This document shows positions 37,458 through 45,129 of a stretch of DNA of 64,000 bases, piece by piece. Source of the DNA: Pseudobdellovibrionaceae bacterium (lineage in GTDB: Bacteria; Bdellovibrionota; Bdellovibrionia; Bdellovibrionales; Bdellovibrionaceae); contig JBDHWW010000008.1 in NCBI GenBank assembly GCA_039810425.1, positions 1 through 64,000 on the forward strand. The letters run 5' to 3'. Below the pieces are notes generated by a model. It did not search any database. It was not told the origin of the DNA and saw only the letters and a program-made list of their open reading frames with translations. The position numbers and the translations under genes are program-made. Numbering within the stretch: position 1 is the first letter of the stretch; each line of letters begins with the position of its first letter.

Positions 37458-38411
37458 TTAGATTTTCGCCAACAGTGCTTGCAGCAAAACGGAAATCAAC
37501 TGTTGCTCTGTCGAGTTAAGTCCCAACTTACTTAAATTAGCGGACTGCCCGGCAATCACACTTGAAAGCAACTGATTGAGATTCAAGCCCATTGATGAAT
37601 TAGAACTCAGAAATTGAGACAAGCCCGACTGGGATCCGGCGGTCAAAGAGTTAATAAGCATTTGTGTGACGCTGCTGCTGTTGGAAAAACCAGAAAGCCC
37701 CTGAATGGACCCCGCACCGATCTTATTTAAAATATCGGATAAAACGCCGGAGCCAATATTGGCAATATTGAGATTGCCGATTCCCAGAACCGCACCCGAA
37801 GAAAGGCTTTGCAGTAAAGCCGAAAGATTTGTCGCCGGAAGGCCGGATGCTCCAAGAGATGAAACCAAGGAACTCATTAGAGTGCTCGACACTGACGACA
37901 GACTTCCATTGCTGACTCCTGCCGCTGAAAGATTCTGGAAAAGTGTCGTTGAGATGTTTTGAATGAGACCACTCGATAGGCCGCCACCGGAAGAAAGCAG
38001 CGATGTCTCAATAGCCGACGTTCCAAGTCCGGAAACAAGCGTCGCGATCTGCGGGCCGCTCAGGCCAGGAACGGTGGCACCGATATTCTGACTCATCCCC
38101 TGAATGATAATTGGAATTAAGGCGTTAACATCGGTACTTGAACTGAGGCCTTTGGCGTTGATGGCAACGGCGCCAGAGTTTAAAAGCGTAAGAAGTTGCG
38201 ACTCGGATAATAAAGACTTTTGACGAAGGCTCGTACCGAAGGTTTGCAATACTTTATTTGACGGAGCGGTATTTTCAGCTGCCGTCGGAGGAACCGCTGC
38301 GCTATTATTGACGGGAGCAGATTCCGCAGAGACGGGCGCATTAAATTTTCCGCCACAAGCTGATAACATGGAAACTGCAGTGATACTTAAAAGCGCGTAA
38401 CGTGATTTCAT
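37458..38411 (-). CDS. Ser/Gly/Leu-rich lipoprotein
   Basis: AAGGAG RBS, lipobox LSAC, low-complexity repetitive helices. Confidence 0.7.
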   Translation of the reverse strand: MKSRYALLSITAVSMLSACGGKFNAPVSAESAPVNNSAAVPPTAAENTAPSNKVLQTFGTSLRQKSLLSESQLLTLLNSGAVAINAKGLSSSTDVNALIPIIIQGMSQNIGATVPGLSGPQIATLVSGLGTSAIETSLLSSGGGLSSGLIQNISTTLFQNLSAAGVSNGSLSSVSSTLMSSLVSSLGASGLPATNLSALLQSLSSGAVLGIGNLNIANIGSGVLSDILNKIGAGSIQGLSGFSNSSSVTQMLINSLTAGSQSGLSQFLSSNSSMGLNLNQLLSSVIAGQSANLSKLGLNSTEQQLISVLLQALLAKI

Positions 38412-38646: not shown

Positions 38647-39030
38647 TTAAGCGGACTTCTTAAGGAGTTGGCCTTTTGCGCCTGGCTCATTGCCGGCGGG
38701 AAGAGTCCATAAATCAAGTTCAGGAATACGACGGATCACTGTGCCGTTTGTATCTTTGATGAGAACAAACTTTTTATTTTCGATAAGAAACAGTTCTACT
38801 AACCAACCGTGCTCTTTGATGGCTGAAAAATTTCGGAGTTGTTCGAGGGCTTTTTGGATTTGTTCATCGGTCATCGGCTCACGATGTTGCTGATTACCGG
38901 CGCCCGCCTGCTGTCCATTGGCATCGCGGTCCGCTGCCGAATCGGATTTAATCGCTCTCTCGGTTTTCGAGGCGCCCCGAATCGGATTCGTTGGTAGCAT
39001 GTTTCCTAATAGGCCTTTGATATTCATCAA
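38647..39030 (-). CDS. flaG: FlaG-like flagellar protein
   Basis: VLIKDTNGTVIRRIP motif; between flagellin and fliD. Confidence 0.65.
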   Translation of the reverse strand: MMNIKGLLGNMLPTNPIRGASKTERAIKSDSAADRDANGQQAGAGNQQHREPMTDEQIQKALEQLRNFSAIKEHGWLVELFLIENKKFVLIKDTNGTVIRRIPELDLWTLPAGNEPGAKGQLLKKSA

Positions 39031-39193: not shown

Positions 39194-40027
39194 TTAACCC
39201 AAGAGTTTCAAAGCAAGCTGCGGTGTCGAGTTAGCTTGACCAAGAACACTTGTATTCGCGTTCAAGAGAATCGTATTTCTAGTCATCTCTGAAGTTGCTG
39301 CCGCTACATCTGTGTCACGGATACGAGAGTTTGCTGCCGAGATATTTTCGTACATGACACCCAAGTTGTCAGAAGTGGATTGCAAACGATTTTGGATCGC
39401 ACCTAGACTTGCGCGGTAGCCATTCACTTTGAATTGTGCATCATCCAGTTTTGAAAGAGCGGACTGCGCACCTTCTTTGGAAGTGAAATCGAGGCCTTCT
39501 ACGCCCAACTCATCAATTGTCGCGTTGGTCATCGCAGAATCATACGTGATACGATCTTCTGATTCATTATTGTTGATACCGACTTGGAAATCGAATGCGT
39601 TGCCAGAACCATTCAGAAGCTGTGTATTTCCGAAACGAGTTGTTTGAGAGATTCGTTGCATTTCCGCTTTAAGTTGTTGCACCTCTTTGTCAGTGAAACC
39701 GCGTTCACGGTCACCTACGGTGTCGGAAGCGGCCTGGATGCCCAACTCACGAATACGAGTCAAAATGTTGCTCACTTCGTTCAACCCGCCTTCTGCAGTT
39801 TGCACCATAGAGATACCATCGTTAGCATTACGTTGAGCCTGAACCATACTACGGCCTTGAGATTTTAAATTTTCACTGATTGCCAAGCCTGCAGCGTCGT
39901 CTGCTGACTTAGTGATACGAGAACCTGAAGCCAATTGAGCCATGCTCTTTTGGATTTCGCGCTGGCCATTAGCCATTGTTCGCTGCGCGTTAATTGCTGC
40001 TACGTTCGTCGAAATTCTGATTCCCAT
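39194..40027 (-). CDS. fliC: Flagellin A (277 aa)
   Basis: LASGSRITKSADDAAGLAIS, QNRL, SRIRDTDVA. Confidence 0.97.
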   Translation of the reverse strand: MGIRISTNVAAINAQRTMANGQREIQKSMAQLASGSRITKSADDAAGLAISENLKSQGRSMVQAQRNANDGISMVQTAEGGLNEVSNILTRIRELGIQAASDTVGDRERGFTDKEVQQLKAEMQRISQTTRFGNTQLLNGSGNAFDFQVGINNNESEDRITYDSAMTNATIDELGVEGLDFTSKEGAQSALSKLDDAQFKVNGYRASLGAIQNRLQSTSDNLGVMYENISAANSRIRDTDVAAATSEMTRNTILLNANTSVLGQANSTPQLALKLLG

Positions 40028-40198
40028 GTGGGACCTCCATTTTTTTGGCGGTCTTATACCTACTTAGACCGCCTGTTTGTACACGTTGGTGACTTCACTT
40101 CTTCCTCTAGAGCCTGCTAGCGATGAACTCTCGGCAGTCACTCCTTAAGTCCCTCTCAGCCCGTCCAGGTCGAGGTGTCGTCGTTGCTGTTGACATAC

Positions 40199-40225
40199 CT
40201 TTCGGCGAGGTCGTGGAAGTCTTTA
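40199..40225 (-). promoter_or_regulatory. Putative sigma28 promoter of flagellin A (leader ~165 nt)
   Basis: TAAA-N15-GCCGAAAG. Confidence 0.75.
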
Positions 40226-40439
40226 GTCGCGTCCGGCAGAACTGGACCATCGTCGCGCGCGAACTAGACTAAGGTTTTGCTTTTCTGGACTTTTTGCGCG
40301 GATTTCCCGGCTCTAGGTCGTGGAAATTTCCACGCCCGACCACAGTCTCGTCGGGCCGGTGCTGGACTATATACTAAGAGATCTTAGTCTTGGCTGATGA
40401 AAGGCTTGGTCTGGCCTGGAAGAAGCTGGTAAAACTCTA

Positions 40440-40895
40440 ATGGTGAAAACAAAAACAGCTGTCCTTATACTTACACTGATCATCACCGCATGCGCCTCTT
40501 CAGAAAGTGCGCAGAACGATCCTACGACAGGTGAAACAATGGCAAAGCTAAAATCCCGCCCGTTGGGCGTGTCCGTGATTGAGTTGCCTAACACCAATGC
40601 TATTTCCATTAAATTGAAATTTGACTGTCAGGATGAAAATTACAAAATCCGTATGCTTAAGTACAAGATCCGCGCGACTGAGAATGACAAAGAGATCCAG
40701 ACCGATGGCCTGCAAAAAAGCTGGCTCGATAAAAACATAACCATCGTGAATCTCAAGTACCCTAAAACCCGCCATATCAAGTTTAAGAGCATTGAGATCT
40801 CGGCCCACTCTTGGGTGCGCTCATTCCCCGATTCGCAGCTTAGCAGCCCCATTGGCCTGACTCTGCAGCAATGCAAGGACTTAGCGCCGTATTAG
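40440..40895 (+). CDS. Hypothetical lipoprotein
   Basis: Lipobox ITAC. Confidence 0.55.
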   Translation: MVKTKTAVLILTLIITACASSESAQNDPTTGETMAKLKSRPLGVSVIELPNTNAISIKLKFDCQDENYKIRMLKYKIRATENDKEIQTDGLQKSWLDKNITIVNLKYPKTRHIKFKSIEISAHSWVRSFPDSQLSSPIGLTLQQCKDLAPY

Positions 40896-40995
40896 TTGTC
40901 CTCTCAAAGGTCGCAAGAACCTTTTTTGCGTTTACTCGATCGTAGCTGCCGCGGCCATGGGCAGCAACTACCACTCACCGTATATTGTGTTTGCT

Positions 40996-41499
40996 CTAGC
41001 TATTTTCAGATTTCTCGCGGCGATCGCTTCGGGCTCTATAGAAAGCTTTGGTTGCAACGTAAATATTCTTGTCTATGGTTGAGACGATAGCACCCGACTC
41101 ATCAAACCAACTGACGGATTTTGCAAACTCATACTTGCCTTCAGAAGCAGTCACGCGTTTGATTTGCTCGACCTCGTCTTCGGTATAGATAAATTCAGCT
41201 TTGAGCTTTCCTTTGCCGGGCTTTTTAAACTGAATCGATGCCGACTTATCCCAAACGACGTAGCCATCGCCAAGAATATTAATCAGCATCACCATGTACA
41301 TTGGATCCGTGGCAGAAAATTGGCTGCCACCGAAAATCGTGCCAACATAATTGCGCGTCCAAATATTCAGTGACAAGCGCACAACTACCCTCATCCAATC
41401 ACCCGCGATAAACAGCACCTTACCACCGGTTCCGAAGAACATTGGATATAGATTAATACCATATCTGAAAAATCGCGTTTTTAAAGATTCAGGAGTCAT
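40996..41499 (-). CDS. DUF4442 / hot-dog thioesterase-like protein
   Basis: RNYVGTIFGGS, DPMY, VWDKSASIQFKKPG motifs. Confidence 0.85.
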   Translation of the reverse strand: MTPESLKTRFFRYGINLYPMFFGTGGKVLFIAGDWMRVVVRLSLNIWTRNYVGTIFGGSQFSATDPMYMVMLINILGDGYVVWDKSASIQFKKPGKGKLKAEFIYTEDEVEQIKRVTASEGKYEFAKSVSWFDESGAIVSTIDKNIYVATKAFYRARSDRREKSENS

Positions 41500-41509
41500 G
41501 CTTTTCCTT

Positions 41510-42523
41510 CTAATGCCAAACCAAAGGATCAGACCAAAGCGCATCAACGAGACTCACTTCCGCCGGCTGGTAGGATCTCATGCCCAATGCTTTCATAAAG
41601 CCGAACACCAACGCAAGGTTTGTCACCTCGGTCGCCGCATAGGGGTCATTAATCTGAACATCCGTCATATTCGCACGAATCTCGAGAGCCGCCTGAATCG
41701 TTTCTTGTGTCATCGCACTGGCGGCAATAATTTGCCGAGGAAGCGACTTTGCCAAAACACCGCCGATACCAACAACCACTGTTTCGGGATTTGCGAATTT
41801 TCTTTTGATGTTAGCCGGCACGGTTGCTGTTGCTTCTACTTCCGCAAGAGCTACTGAAGGCTTCACGTTTTTTTTCTTTAATGGGTTGGGAGAAGTGACT
41901 TTGTCCGGATTCATTTTCTGAACTTTAGCAATGACCTGATTTTTAAAACTCACCGACGCGAGATTGCCGTAATATACCGTCGGCTTGAGTGCTTCATCCA
42001 CGCTTGTCATTTGCATGCTGCCGCCGCCGATATCCCAAACCACCAGATCCCCAATAGGGACTTTGACTTTTTCGCGAGCCACTTGAAAGCCTAAGAAGGC
42101 CTCTTCGCTTTGCGAGATCACCTTTAAGGGAATGGACAGTTTTTCACGAATCACTTTTACGAAGCTGTCGGCATTTTTAGCCTGACGAAAAGCCGCCGTC
42201 GCGATGCCTGTGAACCTCTTCGTCCCTTTGGCCTGAGCTTCACTCTTTAATTTTTCGAGCGCGACTAGCCCCTCGGTTTGAACAGACTCTGAAAACTCCC
42301 CAGCCTCGTTCTTTTCAAGCGCGTCTCGGTAATCGACCTTCACTTGATCCTCGAGCACCGTTTGAGTCACATCCTGTGTGCAAGTATTAAACTCAACGAC
42401 CTTCATTTTAGTGGCACCGGATCCCACATCAAAGGCCGCGCGGATCTCGGGTCCACACTTCGGCGTCGTCTGGCAAGAAACCAAAGAAAGCGATATAAGA
42501 AGAAGAAATAAAACATGGTACAT
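41510..42523 (-). CDS. Ppx/GppA (ASKHA) phosphatase-family protein with lipoprotein signal
   Basis: DVGSGATK, ATAAFRQA, VISQSEEA, DIGGGS; lipobox LVSC. Confidence 0.85.
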   Translation of the reverse strand: MYHVLFLLLISLSLVSCQTTPKCGPEIRAAFDVGSGATKMKVVEFNTCTQDVTQTVLEDQVKVDYRDALEKNEAGEFSESVQTEGLVALEKLKSEAQAKGTKRFTGIATAAFRQAKNADSFVKVIREKLSIPLKVISQSEEAFLGFQVAREKVKVPIGDLVVWDIGGGSMQMTSVDEALKPTVYYGNLASVSFKNQVIAKVQKMNPDKVTSPNPLKKKNVKPSVALAEVEATATVPANIKRKFANPETVVVGIGGVLAKSLPRQIIAASAMTQETIQAALEIRANMTDVQINDPYAATEVTNLALVFGFMKALGMRSYQPAEVSLVDALWSDPLVWH

Positions 42524-42620
42524 AGATCGTCCTTGAAAGATTTCCTCCTATTACAAGCCGTATAGAACGAAACTTCAAGAAACCATCGCGCTGCATCCGA
42601 AAAAGGTACGGCGTACCCTC

Positions 42621-42656
42621 AAAAAAAAAACCCCGAAAGGCTTGCGCCTCCCGGGG
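42621..42656 (-). terminator. Intrinsic terminator ~230 nt downstream of flagellin B
   Basis: CCCCGGGAGGC-GCAA-GCCUUUCGGGG followed by U10. Confidence 0.85.
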
Positions 42657-42888
42657 TGGGCTTAAGAGTAGTTTTTGTGGGCGACTACTCGTAATTATTT
42701 GAAACTCCGTTCCCGCTGGAGTTCCTTTAAAATTTATCTCAAGAGTTCGCGCAATCAATTAGGATTACACCAACTCCTCAAATATTGTCCGCAATGACAA
42801 AGCAGTTTTGGAAGGCTCGGCAGATCTGTGAGCACTCACTCTCACAGATCCACCATTTTGTATCACTGAAGCTTTCAGTGAAATTTTA

Positions 42889-43713
42889 TTATAAGAGCTT
42901 CAATGCGACCGCTGGTGTTTGGTTGGCTTGAGCCAAAACCCCTACCGCCGCTTGTTGCAAGATATTGGCAGACGTCATCTCAGAAGTTTCTTTCGCGACG
43001 TCTGTGTCACGGATACGAGAGTTCGCAGCCGTCAAGTTTTCGTACTGGATGTCCAAGTTGCTTACCGTGGAATCCAAGCGACTTTGTACCGCACCGAAGT
43101 TCGCTCTCAGTGAGCTGACCTTCACGAGGGCATCATCGACGGTTTTCAAAGCAGCGCGCGCATCGGATTTCGTACCTACCTCAAGACCGTCGATACCAAG
43201 CTCTGAGCCTGTAGCATCGGCGCCAAGGTCGTACTTAATAATATTCTCATCACCGGCGAAGGCACCCACTTGGAACTCCATCTTACCGCCAGAGCCATCC
43301 AAGAGCCGTTTATCACCAAACACCGTAGTTTTCGCGATACGGTCCGCCTCTTGAGTCAGTTGGGTTGCTTCAAGATTCAAGAATCCGCGTTCGCGCTCAC
43401 CGATATGGTCAGAAGCCGCTTGGACTCCCAACTCACGCAAACGGATTAAAATATTACTGATCTCATTCAATCCCCCCTCAGACACTTGAATTGCTGAAGT
43501 CGCATTGAACGCATTGTTTCTGGCCTGAGCAATACCGCGCACCTGGCCGCGGATATTTTCAGAGATCGCGAGGCCGGCCGCATCATCAGATGCATGCACG
43601 ATACGCGAACCAGAAGCTAAGGCCGCCGTCGCATGTTCCGCACGTTTCTGCTGAACCGACAACACCCTTTGTGCCGATATAGACGCCATGTTGGTCTGAA
43701 TTCTTAAGCCCAT
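42889..43713 (-). CDS. fliC: Flagellin B (274 aa)
   Basis: LASGSRIVHASDDAAGLAIS, SRIRDTDVA. Confidence 0.97.
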   Translation of the reverse strand: MGLRIQTNMASISAQRVLSVQQKRAEHATAALASGSRIVHASDDAAGLAISENIRGQVRGIAQARNNAFNATSAIQVSEGGLNEISNILIRLRELGVQAASDHIGERERGFLNLEATQLTQEADRIAKTTVFGDKRLLDGSGGKMEFQVGAFAGDENIIKYDLGADATGSELGIDGLEVGTKSDARAALKTVDDALVKVSSLRANFGAVQSRLDSTVSNLDIQYENLTAANSRIRDTDVAKETSEMTSANILQQAAVGVLAQANQTPAVALKLL

Positions 43714-43940
43714 TGTATCCTCCTTAGGATGAAGCCAACGCGGTTCCGACCCACCGAAGCTCGCGCTGGAGTTCTAAAAAACTAACTACGTTAAAATGTT
43801 TTTTTAGATTGGAGCGGGCCCGCACTCTCTGACGGGGCGACTGTCCCTTCAGAGAGGCGAGCTATCCGCCTAAGGAGGATTCTGTCGAGTGACTGCTAGA
43901 CAAAGGTCCCGAGGTTTTAGCTCCAACGTGTACGCAATAC

Positions 43941-43967
43941 TTCTCGGCCTTGGTCCAGGAAACTTAA
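43941..43967 (-). promoter_or_regulatory. Putative sigma28 promoter of flagellin B (leader ~220 nt)
   Basis: TTAAGTTT-N11-GCCGAGAA. Confidence 0.75.
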
Positions 43968-44109
43968 GGCCCTTGGTCTAGCTTTTCTTTGGATGCGACG
44001 CGTCTTGTATGTGAAAATATTGAGAATGTGGATTAAAAAAATATTTTAAAAACACCTACTTAGGTCTAGGTCGAACTAGACCTTGCAGCAATTATGTTAC
44101 GGAGTTTGG

Positions 44110-44141
44110 GCGGCGAAGAACGCCATTAGCGTCTTCGCCGC
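44110..44141 (-). terminator. Strong hairpin downstream of flagellin C
   Basis: GCGGCGAAGACGCU-AAU-GGCGUUCUUCGCCGC; no clear U tract. Confidence 0.55.
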
Positions 44142-44173: not shown

Positions 44174-44998
44174 CTAAGCGATTAATCGCAGCAGAACTTC
44201 ATTCGACATATTGGACTGGGCCAATACCGATGCCTGATATTGCTGCAAGATCTGACCACGGCGAACCTCGCTCACCGCTTGCGCGACATCAGTGTCGGCC
44301 ATTCTCGAGTGCGCGGCTTCGATGTTCTCGATGCCCACCGCGAGATTGTTGGCGGCGCTGTCCATACGTGATTGGACGGCTCCGTATTTGGCGCGTGCCT
44401 CGGCCACCTTCATCATCGCTTCATCGATGTCCTTCAGGTTACTGCGGGCATCGCTCTTGGATTCGATATCGCCGCCAGCCACGCCCAGTGAAGAGCCCGT
44501 GGTGTCGGTGTCCGAAGTGTACTTAATGATGCTGTCGCTGCCACCCGAAGTTCCGACTTGGAATTCGTAGTCTTTCGATCTTCCATTCAGCAATGAGGTG
44601 GAACCATAAGTGGTCGTCTTTGCAATACGATCCAACTCTTGCGACAGTTGAGTGTATTCAAAGTTAAGGTATTCGCGCTCTTTATCAGAGTACGTATCAC
44701 TCGCTGCCTGAACCGCTAGCTCGCGCATACGGATCAGAATATTATTCTGCTCGTTGAGAGCCCCCTCAGCGACTTGAATAAAACTCGTGGCATTGTCGGC
44801 ATTGTTCAATGCCGCCCTTTGGCCTCGCATTTGACCTTTGAGTTGCTCTGCGATTGCAGCGCCAGCGGCGTCGGAGCCGGGCGTATTGAAGCGGGTTCCG
44901 GAAGCCAAATCCTTCATAGCCTTTTCAGTAGACCGTTGGGTCGAGCCCAGGTATCTCTGCGCCATGAGAGATGCCGAAACAGGAGAAATACGTAACAT
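44174..44998 (-). CDS. fliC: Flagellin C (274 aa, more divergent)
   Basis: GGAGGT RBS before MLRIS; LASG..DAAG, RMRELAVQAASD, SRMADTDVA. Confidence 0.95.
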   Translation of the reverse strand: MLRISPVSASLMAQRYLGSTQRSTEKAMKDLASGTRFNTPGSDAAGAAIAEQLKGQMRGQRAALNNADNATSFIQVAEGALNEQNNILIRMRELAVQAASDTYSDKEREYLNFEYTQLSQELDRIAKTTTYGSTSLLNGRSKDYEFQVGTSGGSDSIIKYTSDTDTTGSSLGVAGGDIESKSDARSNLKDIDEAMMKVAEARAKYGAVQSRMDSAANNLAVGIENIEAAHSRMADTDVAQAVSEVRRGQILQQYQASVLAQSNMSNEVLLRLIA

Positions 44999-45102
44999 TG
45001 AAGCCACCTCCCCTTCCCCGAGTGCCTCGCCCCGAGACATTATGGAAGGAAAAAAGCGCCCACATTTAAACTCTTAAGACCTTTGTCTAGCAGTCACAAT
45101 TC

Positions 45103-45129
45103 TTTTCGGCGCATTGCGTTAAAACTTTA
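45103..45129 (-). promoter_or_regulatory. Putative sigma28 promoter of flagellin C (leader ~100 nt)
   Basis: TAAAGTTT-N11-GCCGAAAA, near-perfect consensus. Confidence 0.85.

Follow-up and report, generated by a model that had tools for sequence, protein, structure and literature searches.

Do flagellin mRNAs that are transcribed separately pair with one another, and if so, what could such pairing achieve? This question is raised by a stretch of 64,000 nucleotides (nt) from a Pseudobdellovibrionaceae bacterium (GenBank assembly GCA_039810425.1, contig JBDHWW010000008.1, positions 1 to 64,000; referred to as the window), in which three flagellin genes, here called C, B and A, precede fliD and fliS and are read from the minus strand. 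Since all three share this strand, complementary blocks in their leaders are complements between transcripts. Two such blocks between A and B, and a site on B for which A and C would compete, had been described in an earlier note made from the letters of the window. The comparative analysis reported here indicates that conserved pairing in trans among these mRNAs is very probably real and takes place at the RNA level. The helices, the identity of the partners, their RNA nature and their action in trans are all supported by sequence evidence. The genes and promoters concerned are the following:

44174..44998, minus strand: flagellin C, the seventh flagellin, 274 amino acids (AA) from the ATG at 44998; the listed open reading frame (ORF) opens at 45040
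42889..43713, minus strand: flagellin B, orthologue of FliC1, 274 AA, Pfam Flagellin_N/C, with the putative hub mRNA
39194..40027, minus strand: flagellin A, orthologue of FliC2, 277 AA, Pfam Flagellin_N/C
45104..45129, minus strand: sigma28-type promoter of C
43943..43966, minus strand: sigma28-type promoter of B
40200..40225, minus strand: sigma28-type promoter of A, with +1 at 40191 and a leader of 164 nt

B was assigned to FliC1 and A to FliC2 because their lengths and identities agree with Table 1 of PMC2791853, which lists FliC1 with 274 AA and 55.3 % identity to FliC2, and FliC2 with 277 AA. B is 54 % identical to A, and A is 71, 70 and 62 % identical to three other flagellins. Seven flagellins are encoded in the genome, which is 99.9 % complete, and C is additional to the six described in PMC2791853. 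The named relatives of B are Bdellovibrionales. The start site of Bd0606, the orthologue of A in B. bacteriovorus, has been mapped with a leader of 164 nt (PMC3627812, Table S2). The +1 of A was placed at 40191 since the leader has this same length and the promoter is nearly identical. By analogy with this mapped start, the +1 of B is predicted at 43933 and that of C at about 45095.

For comparison, 39 genome stretches, 80 further loci and the window were combined into 96 distinct B loci, 92 of them with a scored promoter. Another 40 loci from one genus, g10, raised this number to 131, and 112 non-redundant Bdellovibrionales loci were left once leaders at least 95 % alike had been removed. Within these 112 loci, which are cited by L numbers where needed, an A leader with a scored promoter was available in 74 and a C leader in 60; loci lacking one were excluded. 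If a locus had two A-type genes, the copy with the better A-B helix (H1, below) was taken, which favours pairing in those few loci.

All 15 pairs among the six untranslated regions (UTRs) of A, B and C were then scored all against all, with the partner from the same genome set against foreign partners. Three pairs beat their non-cognate counterparts, namely A5':B5' (n=74, p=8e-9), B5':C5' (n=60, p=3e-21) and C5':B3' (n=58, p=5e-9), although these p-values are overstated since kin loci are not independent. The other 12 pairs, including A5':C5', A5':A3' and B5':B3', showed no cognate excess (p >= 0.13). Likewise, 24 comparisons of the UTRs of the other four flagellins with the A, B and C regions, with 10-22 genes each, yielded no cognate excess (best p=0.09). 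Four covarying helices, designated H1, H2, H3 and H5, were found across the loci, and an additional one, H4, is limited to certain lineages. Complementary segments on separately transcribed mRNAs are thus conserved as pairs.

The first of these helices, H1, joins the predicted 5' end of the B mRNA to the A leader:

43923..43933, minus strand: 5' end of B (+1 to +11), H1 strand, with +1 placed by analogy with the mapped A start
40079..40089, minus strand: A strand of H1, the 3' foot of a long hairpin

The first block of the earlier note lies exactly where it had been placed, B GUACACGUUGG being the exact complement of A CCAACGUGUAC. This 11-mer alone is not rare genome-wide, with 4 copies on both strands compared to about 1.7 expected. 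Between leaders of 164 and 220 nt, our own arithmetic gives about 0.008 perfect 11-mers and 0.03 perfect 10-mers by chance. It is the conservation that places H1 beyond chance. The shuffled leaders and related genomes that had been suggested as checks gave a mean energy of -18.1 kcal/mol for cognate pairs, -11.7 for non-cognate pairs and -6.8 for shuffled leaders, with values of -12 or lower in 69 of the 74 pairs. The helix is spelled by 48 distinct strings, including a wholly different yet complementary one in L066. On the B-protein tree with 70 tips, 44 double-sided changes were counted for H1, compared to 0-1 when the partner was slid by 1 or 2 positions; the tree counts for H2 and H5 were 84 and 78. 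H1 is weak in five loci: L058, L088 and L097, which have short A leaders, L090, in which the B site is outside the test window, and L118.

The second contact between A and B, H3, was missed by the earlier note and connects two hairpin loops:

40135..40141, minus strand: kissing loop GUGACUG of A, at the tip of the long hairpin, unpaired in the predicted fold and covarying with the B loop
43837..43843, minus strand: kissing loop CAGUCGC of B

Each heptamer lies within a predicted loop of 8 nt, so that the two form complementary hairpin loops. A 7-bp Watson-Crick match was found by an automatic picker in 60 of the 74 pairs. Variants were checked by eye, as the picker sometimes took the first site of B (43887-43896) instead of the loop (window, L084, L113). 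GUGAUUG is paired with CAAUCAC in L067, L084, L087, L137, L156, L227, L244, L248 and L256, GUGACAG with CUGUCAC in L118, GUGACGG with CCGUCAC in L113 and GUGACUA with UAGUCAC in L229. Both loops are missing in L134 and L135, where H1 extends to 16-17 bp. The distance from the A loop to the H1 strand has a median of 53 nt.

The second block of the earlier note had assigned the A heptamer to this first site, and indeed B GCAGUCACUC at 43887-43896 is the exact complement of A GAGUGACUGC at 40134-40143. This is mostly the wrong partner, since the B loop follows A in L084, L113 and L118 while the first site of B remains C-like. Some observations speak against H3 as the only home of the heptamer: it follows the first site of B in L062 and L125, and the A loop is predicted mostly unpaired in just 42 of 66 leaders. 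In the window genome, the two options compute alike, at -24.8 against -22.6. Pairing of A with the first site of B is therefore regarded as a minor alternative, given that it is tracked in two loci and computes similarly here.

Two further sets of observations concern the A-B module. Where A-type genes are duplicated in tandem (L051, L070/L135, L071/L134, L076, L132, L141, L160), only one copy keeps the leader pairing with B, and the non-pairing copy often has a very short leader. The B leaders of L088, L097, L092, L093 and L095 lack the consensus 5' end and the kissing loop and keep the C site. L088 and L097 also have a short A leader, which suggests a joint loss of the A module. One more strand of the B leader may belong to this contact:

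43808..43815, minus strand: CUCCA-type strand, which could pair in cis with B +7 to +14 and would be displaced by A

This motif follows the B loop in 59 of 65 pairs, 26-33 nt off in the central 80 % (median 29 nt), and its cis energy test was weak. Pairing of the freed CUCCA strand with the Shine-Dalgarno sequence of A was also considered; it is strong in a few loci (L061, L106, L118) and not general.

The first site of B belongs to C, whose 5' end forms the helix H2:

45076..45097, minus strand: 5' end of C, H2 strand, with +1 at about 45095
43889..43910, minus strand: landing site on B for the 5' end of C, the 5' half of which (43900-43910) is the H4 strand

The C match had been understated in the earlier note: the 5' end of C and B 43889-43908 are perfect complements over 20 nt and form 22 bp with G-U pairs, and these are the only two places in the genome with this sequence. 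The energy was -34.1 for cognate and -21.9 for non-cognate pairs (58 loci, before the 95 % filter). The pairing reached z < -3 against shuffles in 55 of 58 loci, and the cognate B was ranked first for 31 of 58. Energies of -14 or lower were obtained in 57 of 60 loci, with none in L116, and ungapped runs of at least 15 in 35 of 60. H2 is unusually weak in L108, L109 and L111 (-22 to -24), where an insertion in C interrupts it and H5 is strong.

Loci without C provide a natural comparison. In genus g10, a profile search for C retrieved nothing but the B gene from 41 of 44 genomes and gave no hit at the cut-off in the other 3. The C site of B is missing in 25 of 25 g10 loci and in 12 of 14 other genomes in which C was not found, with a score that is blind to the partner; among loci that have C, this score fails to detect the site in 20 of 72, chiefly because the sequence has diverged. 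The two exceptions, L113 and L151, come from fragmented assemblies. In these C-less loci, B keeps the kissing loop and loses the C site.

A second contact between C and B, H5, which had also escaped the earlier note, reaches the 3' UTR of B. This region is about 270 nt long and contains several hairpins:

45057..45064, minus strand: C leader motif UGUGGGCG (H5)
42666..42690, minus strand: hairpin in the B 3' UTR, whose loop CGCCCACA at 42676-42683 pairs with the C leader (H5)
42620..42657, minus strand: intrinsic terminator ending the B transcript, with a 12-bp stem and 9 U
43748..43755, minus strand: second loop of B, GGUGGGUC, a weak candidate cis partner of the B 3' loop

Of 58 cognate pairs, 23 reached at least 10 of 12 Watson-Crick matches, as did 20 of 174 non-cognate pairs and none of 58 shuffled ones; in the window genome H5 comprises 8 bp. 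In 57 of 61 consensus sites, the core is left unpaired by the predicted fold. The B 3' loop is retained by 26 of 26 C-less loci of g10, in which no partner was identified. The loop thus has another role, which weighs against the regulatory model set out below. A pattern search for a partner in five C-less genomes gave 5-15 hits each, compared to 3-8 in the control, and among the 30 loci compared no locus recurred between genomes, apart from the known site and a single match between two of them. Outside g10, pairing of the loop, as called by a weight matrix that found 62 of 109 loops, with the B leader about 40-55 nt before the start gave -13.1, compared to -8.8 for shuffled sequences (p=1e-4); against non-cognate leaders p was 0.07, and g10 gave no signal. 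A 10-bp match of the C 3' UTR with the B loop (-20.4 in the window genome) is unseen in relatives and was set aside as chance. In addition, an 11-mer of the B leader (43764-43774) recurs in the B 3' UTR (42760-42890) and could pair with the B 5' end; it carries no conserved cognate signal.

Whether these segments act as RNA or as DNA can be judged from where the pairing stops. In H2, Watson-Crick pairs make up 17-34 % at positions -6 to -2, 69 % at -1 and 93-100 % at +1 to +9. In H1 they rise from 20-29 % upstream to 94-100 % at +2 to +10, with -1 intermediate (60-69 % across H1 and H2). The fall-off is abrupt upstream of +1 and gradual downstream, the core columns having served to choose the register, and the B block starts at the predicted +1 as had been claimed. 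G-U pairs outnumber A-C combinations by 30:9 and 22:8, and with the cognate energies and the covariation this bears out the claim that the leaders pair as RNA. The blocks could instead be DNA inverted repeats, such as an invertible segment or protein sites, or a product of chance, and a perfect 20-bp repeat does flank gene C and the B promoter. Unlike in an invertible DNA switch, the repeats vary and hold bulges while complementarity is kept. No inversion joint was seen in contigs of one sequencing run that cover the stretch and probably stem from the source sample, which is weak evidence. This explanation, largely refuted by the all-against-all test, the +1 boundary with the G-U excess and the tree counts, is considered highly improbable.

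A similar question arises for action in trans. The helices could be long-range cis contacts within a read-through transcript of C, B and possibly A, given that the three genes are co-oriented here, that the starts of C and B are a median of about 1.29 kb apart, and that just 28 of 63 loci have a terminator-like site in the interval from C to B. Against this, each gene has its own promoter and B is followed by a strong terminator. Moreover, H1 is retained with A on the opposite strand (L074, L138), and H2 persists in L062, L144 and, by eye, L115, where ORFs on the opposite strand separate C from B. Opposite-strand ORFs occur between B and A in 44 of 72 loci and between C and B in 7 of 63. Contacts in cis are therefore very unlikely to account for the helices.

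The consequence of trans pairing is less certain, and the most direct candidate for it is H4, by which B can cover the ribosome-binding site of A, as had been proposed:

40030..40040, minus strand: Shine-Dalgarno sequence and spacer of A, the H4 target
43717..43728, minus strand: Shine-Dalgarno region of B, with a 12-bp cis pairing to 43869-43880 in this genus (fold z = -3.75)

B GGGACCUUUGU at 43900-43910 pairs with A AUGGAGGUCCC at 40030-40040. Mean energies were -8.9 for cognate, -7.1 for non-cognate and -4.1 for shuffled pairs, and -10 or lower was reached in 3 of 5 loci of this genus (g1), 18 of 24 in the C-less g10 and 8 of 45 elsewhere. Among A leaders of the form GGRGRUYC, 37 of 51 have an H4 register of at least 6 of 8. 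A compensatory change is present in L231/L232, and position 3 of the Shine-Dalgarno sequence is A-U in 27, G-C in 6, G-U in 4 and A-C in 0 cases. The sums of the helices minus opening costs, geometry penalties excluded, were -22.6 for H1 with H3, -31.9 with H4 added and -17.5 for H2. Because the H4 strand lies within the C landing site, H2 and H4 are mutually exclusive. The proposed competition of A and C for B, from which a switch-like logic had been derived, is thus possible for this part of B; it does not extend to H1 and H3, the main grips of A, which do not overlap those of C, so that a three-way complex is possible. All 5 loci of this genus have a strong cis helix over the Shine-Dalgarno region of B itself, compared to 7 of 24 loci in g10 and 1 of 45 elsewhere.

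Based on these helices, the three sigma28 flagellin mRNAs may be joined in trans into a chain of RNA-RNA complexes that centres on B (fliC1) as the hub, in which every link would combine a loop contact with a helix capturing the 5' end of one transcript. A would dock on B by the loop-loop kiss H3 and then capture the first 11-13 nt of B by H1, and the first 15-22 nt of C would bind the B leader by H2 while the second C motif binds the B 3' UTR loop by H5. After docking, the third strand of B could cover the Shine-Dalgarno sequence of A by H4, and translation of FliC2 would be repressed while fliC1 mRNA is abundant. The 5' end of C, in covering the H4 strand of B, would free A and mildly dampen B. 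The outcome could be that flagellin amounts and order, FliC1 before FliC2, are set without Hfq or ProQ. FliC1 is the major and FliC2 a minor filament component, laid in that order (PMC2791853), and in attack phase fliC1 reaches 11984 reads per kilobase per million (RPKM), about six times the 1932 of fliC2 (PMC3627812). Both the FliC1-major, proximal order and the fliC1 RNA excess fit a model in which B represses A, and do not prove it.

Several points weigh against this model. H4 is weak in 37 of the 45 loci outside g1 and g10, and since H1 and H3 are order-wide, the general output may differ from blocking of the Shine-Dalgarno sequence. Any CCUCC can pair with a Shine-Dalgarno sequence, and the ribosome-binding site of B itself is likewise matched by the H4 strand in g10 (mean -8.1 against -12.1). 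Modelled refolding, computed for every second locus, shifted the median cost of opening ribosome sites by only -0.2 to +0.6 kcal/mol, and A bound at H1 and H3 without H4 showed a small shift towards a more open site; allosteric opening or closing by refolding was discarded as an explanation because of this small effect. As the registers were picked for best pairing, the double-sided tree counts may be inflated by register slips. In PMC2791853, single mutants and the wild type are reported with similar band intensities. Binding itself is predicted from sequence, and its sign and output are those of a model. Repression of A translation by the B mRNA, with the C mRNA as antagonist of B, is therefore held with about even confidence.

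The main rival is decay control, since both long helices bury a 5' end. Here, the same trans helices would control mRNA stability, either by shielding the buried 5' ends of B and C from decay that depends on the 5' end or by offering the 15-22 bp of H2 to RNase III. Both long helices begin at a +1, genes for RNase E/G, RNase III and RNase Y are present, and H2 has the ungapped runs of at least 15 noted above in 35 of 60 loci. In Listeria monocytogenes, pairing with hly mRNA protects the 5' end of prsA2 (PMC8722363), a case in which two full-length mRNAs pair in trans via a UTR and a 5' end, as is proposed here. That system has a single contact of a 3' UTR with a 5' end that blocks RNase J1, whereas three paralogous mRNAs and four or five helices are involved here and RNase J was not found in the genome. 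In addition, no more than 9 of 60 loci have an H2 as long as 20 bp, and the H4 covariation on the Shine-Dalgarno sequence of A is left unexplained. Control of stability is considered unlikely.

The non-overlapping main grips of A and C on B, together with the clamping of both B ends by C, also suit a scaffold that would hold the three mRNAs in one complex for joint or ordered translation and export at the flagellar pole. The tight spacings within A (53 nt) and B (29 nt) and the little changed opening of ribosome sites are in line with this. The spacings of the two partners, however, do not co-vary, and the mutual exclusion of H4 and H2 looks regulatory, which makes a scaffold a quite improbable explanation.

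Another possibility is that the active species are not full-length mRNAs but small RNAs that arise from the leaders or the B 3' UTR by cleavage or termination. The precedent is FlaX of Vibrio cholerae, an sRNA processed from a flagellin 3' UTR that pairs with flaB mRNA and represses this other flagellin (PMC11879080), with FlaY as a possible sponge of FlaX (10.64898/2026.08.28.747715). The B 3' hairpin sits just ahead of the terminator, and an A/U-rich linker follows the first domain of B. On the other hand, no terminator-like site was found within the three leaders on their strand, and neither Hfq nor ProQ was found in the 99.9 % complete genome. As to release from a flagellin 3' UTR by RNase E, as in FlaX, RNase E/G is encoded here and H5 uses the B 3' UTR, and the other three of the four core helices use 5' leaders only. 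Small RNAs are accordingly rated as improbable, and pairing between full-length mRNAs, with B as the regulator of A, is retained as the preferred reading.

The network may nevertheless resemble FlaX in function. In both cases, RNA from a flagellin transcript pairs at several sites with the 5' UTR of another flagellin, which for FlaX includes the ribosome-binding site (PMC11879080) and here may include it through H4, mainly in g1 and g10. FlaX sets filament composition, and FlaY, a third flagellin-derived RNA, may antagonise it (10.64898/2026.08.28.747715), a role proposed alike for C. Unlike FlaX, a processed 3'-UTR sRNA that needs ProQ, the partners here are 5' leaders and mRNA 5' ends with loop-loop contacts; dependence on ProQ or Hfq has no counterpart, and no sequence link is claimed. 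In its proposed working, the network is similar to the FlaX/FlaY circuit of Vibrio, to which it does not belong. A chaperone-free loop-loop kiss of structured RNAs followed by a distant helix, with translation as the target, is also known from CopA-CopT of plasmid R1 (PMC10798244). CopA is a cis-encoded, near-perfect antisense RNA, whereas the present partners are separate genes kilobases apart with short complementary patches, and a four-way junction is not part of the claim.

Control of flagellin leaders by CsrA and FliW (PMC13443453) is likewise post-transcriptional, and csrA and fliW are encoded in this genome, located after flgL on contig C10. Being protein-mediated, it leaves the covarying helices unexplained and may act on A too, for which a second loop is a candidate:

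40058..40064, minus strand: second hairpin loop of A, AGUAGGU, 61 of 74 A leaders having a loop with AGGU or GGA

This loop is probably a CsrA-type site, the AGGU variant being our own extension, and no covarying RNA partner was found for it. A match with a stretch upstream of csrA was rejected, as it shows no covariation and lies within a promoter-like site, in the -35 region. In the leaders of the other four flagellins (G000 contigs C2, C4, C27; L290-L329), GGA hairpin loops are visible by eye, some with AGGU at the same place, consistent with CsrA control as read after PMC13443453.

Other features of the locus stand apart from the helices. GACC words (CTAGACC / CTGGACC) are repeated in the B promoter (43943-43990) and upstream of A (40200-40330) and conserved across the order, with one copy in the -35/-10 spacer and another about 23 bp upstream, and the C promoter spacer carries a conserved AACGC..GCG instead. 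These words are probably transcription-factor sites that sort the sigma28 promoters into classes. A palindrome, GGTCTAGGTCGAACTAGACC, lies at 44063-44085 between gene C and the B promoter, and its half GTCTAGTTCG recurs upstream of the A promoter. Just past the C stop codon, at 44110-44141, there is a strong G+C hairpin without a U tail, so that C may read through into B. An element of about 35 bp directly past the B terminator (42583-42620) recurs on other contigs of the same sequencing run and is probably a repeated terminator or a repetitive extragenic palindromic (REP)-like sequence. Between A and fliD, a gene of 127 AA (38647-39030) without a Pfam match has its own promoter-like GCCGATAA upstream and may be FlaG-like by position. 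A putative lipoprotein of 317 AA, rich in Ser, Gly and Leu and also without a Pfam match, is encoded at 37458-38411 within the flagellar cluster. Rfam gave no match in the window at the gathering score, and one sub-threshold, terminator-like hit (E=0.21).

To our knowledge, only a few single cases of bacterial mRNA-mRNA regulation have been described. The present findings concern an order-wide, multi-helix network among three structural genes, one module of which is naturally gained and lost. No report of pairing among Bdellovibrio flagellin mRNAs was found among the top matches listed in the literature searched, most subscription journals being outside its coverage, and the helices point to an RNA-to-RNA control of flagellar filament building that is undescribed so far. 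Bdellovibrio lays its flagellins in ordered blocks by a mechanism that is left unexplained in PMC2791853, and the helices define exactly which bases could be mutated and compensated in this laboratory predator, which is amenable to genetics. The capture of 5' ends combined with a loop kiss, without Hfq or ProQ, has the design of a natural strand-displacement circuit. A more far-reaching and rather doubtful idea is a chaperone-free daisy chain of full-length mRNAs, from the C 5' end to B and the B 5' end to A, with loop kisses and C clamping the B 3' end, serving as an RNA timer that orders the flagellin blocks. If true, such a timer would explain how FliC1 is built in before FliC2 from promoters of one sigma class.

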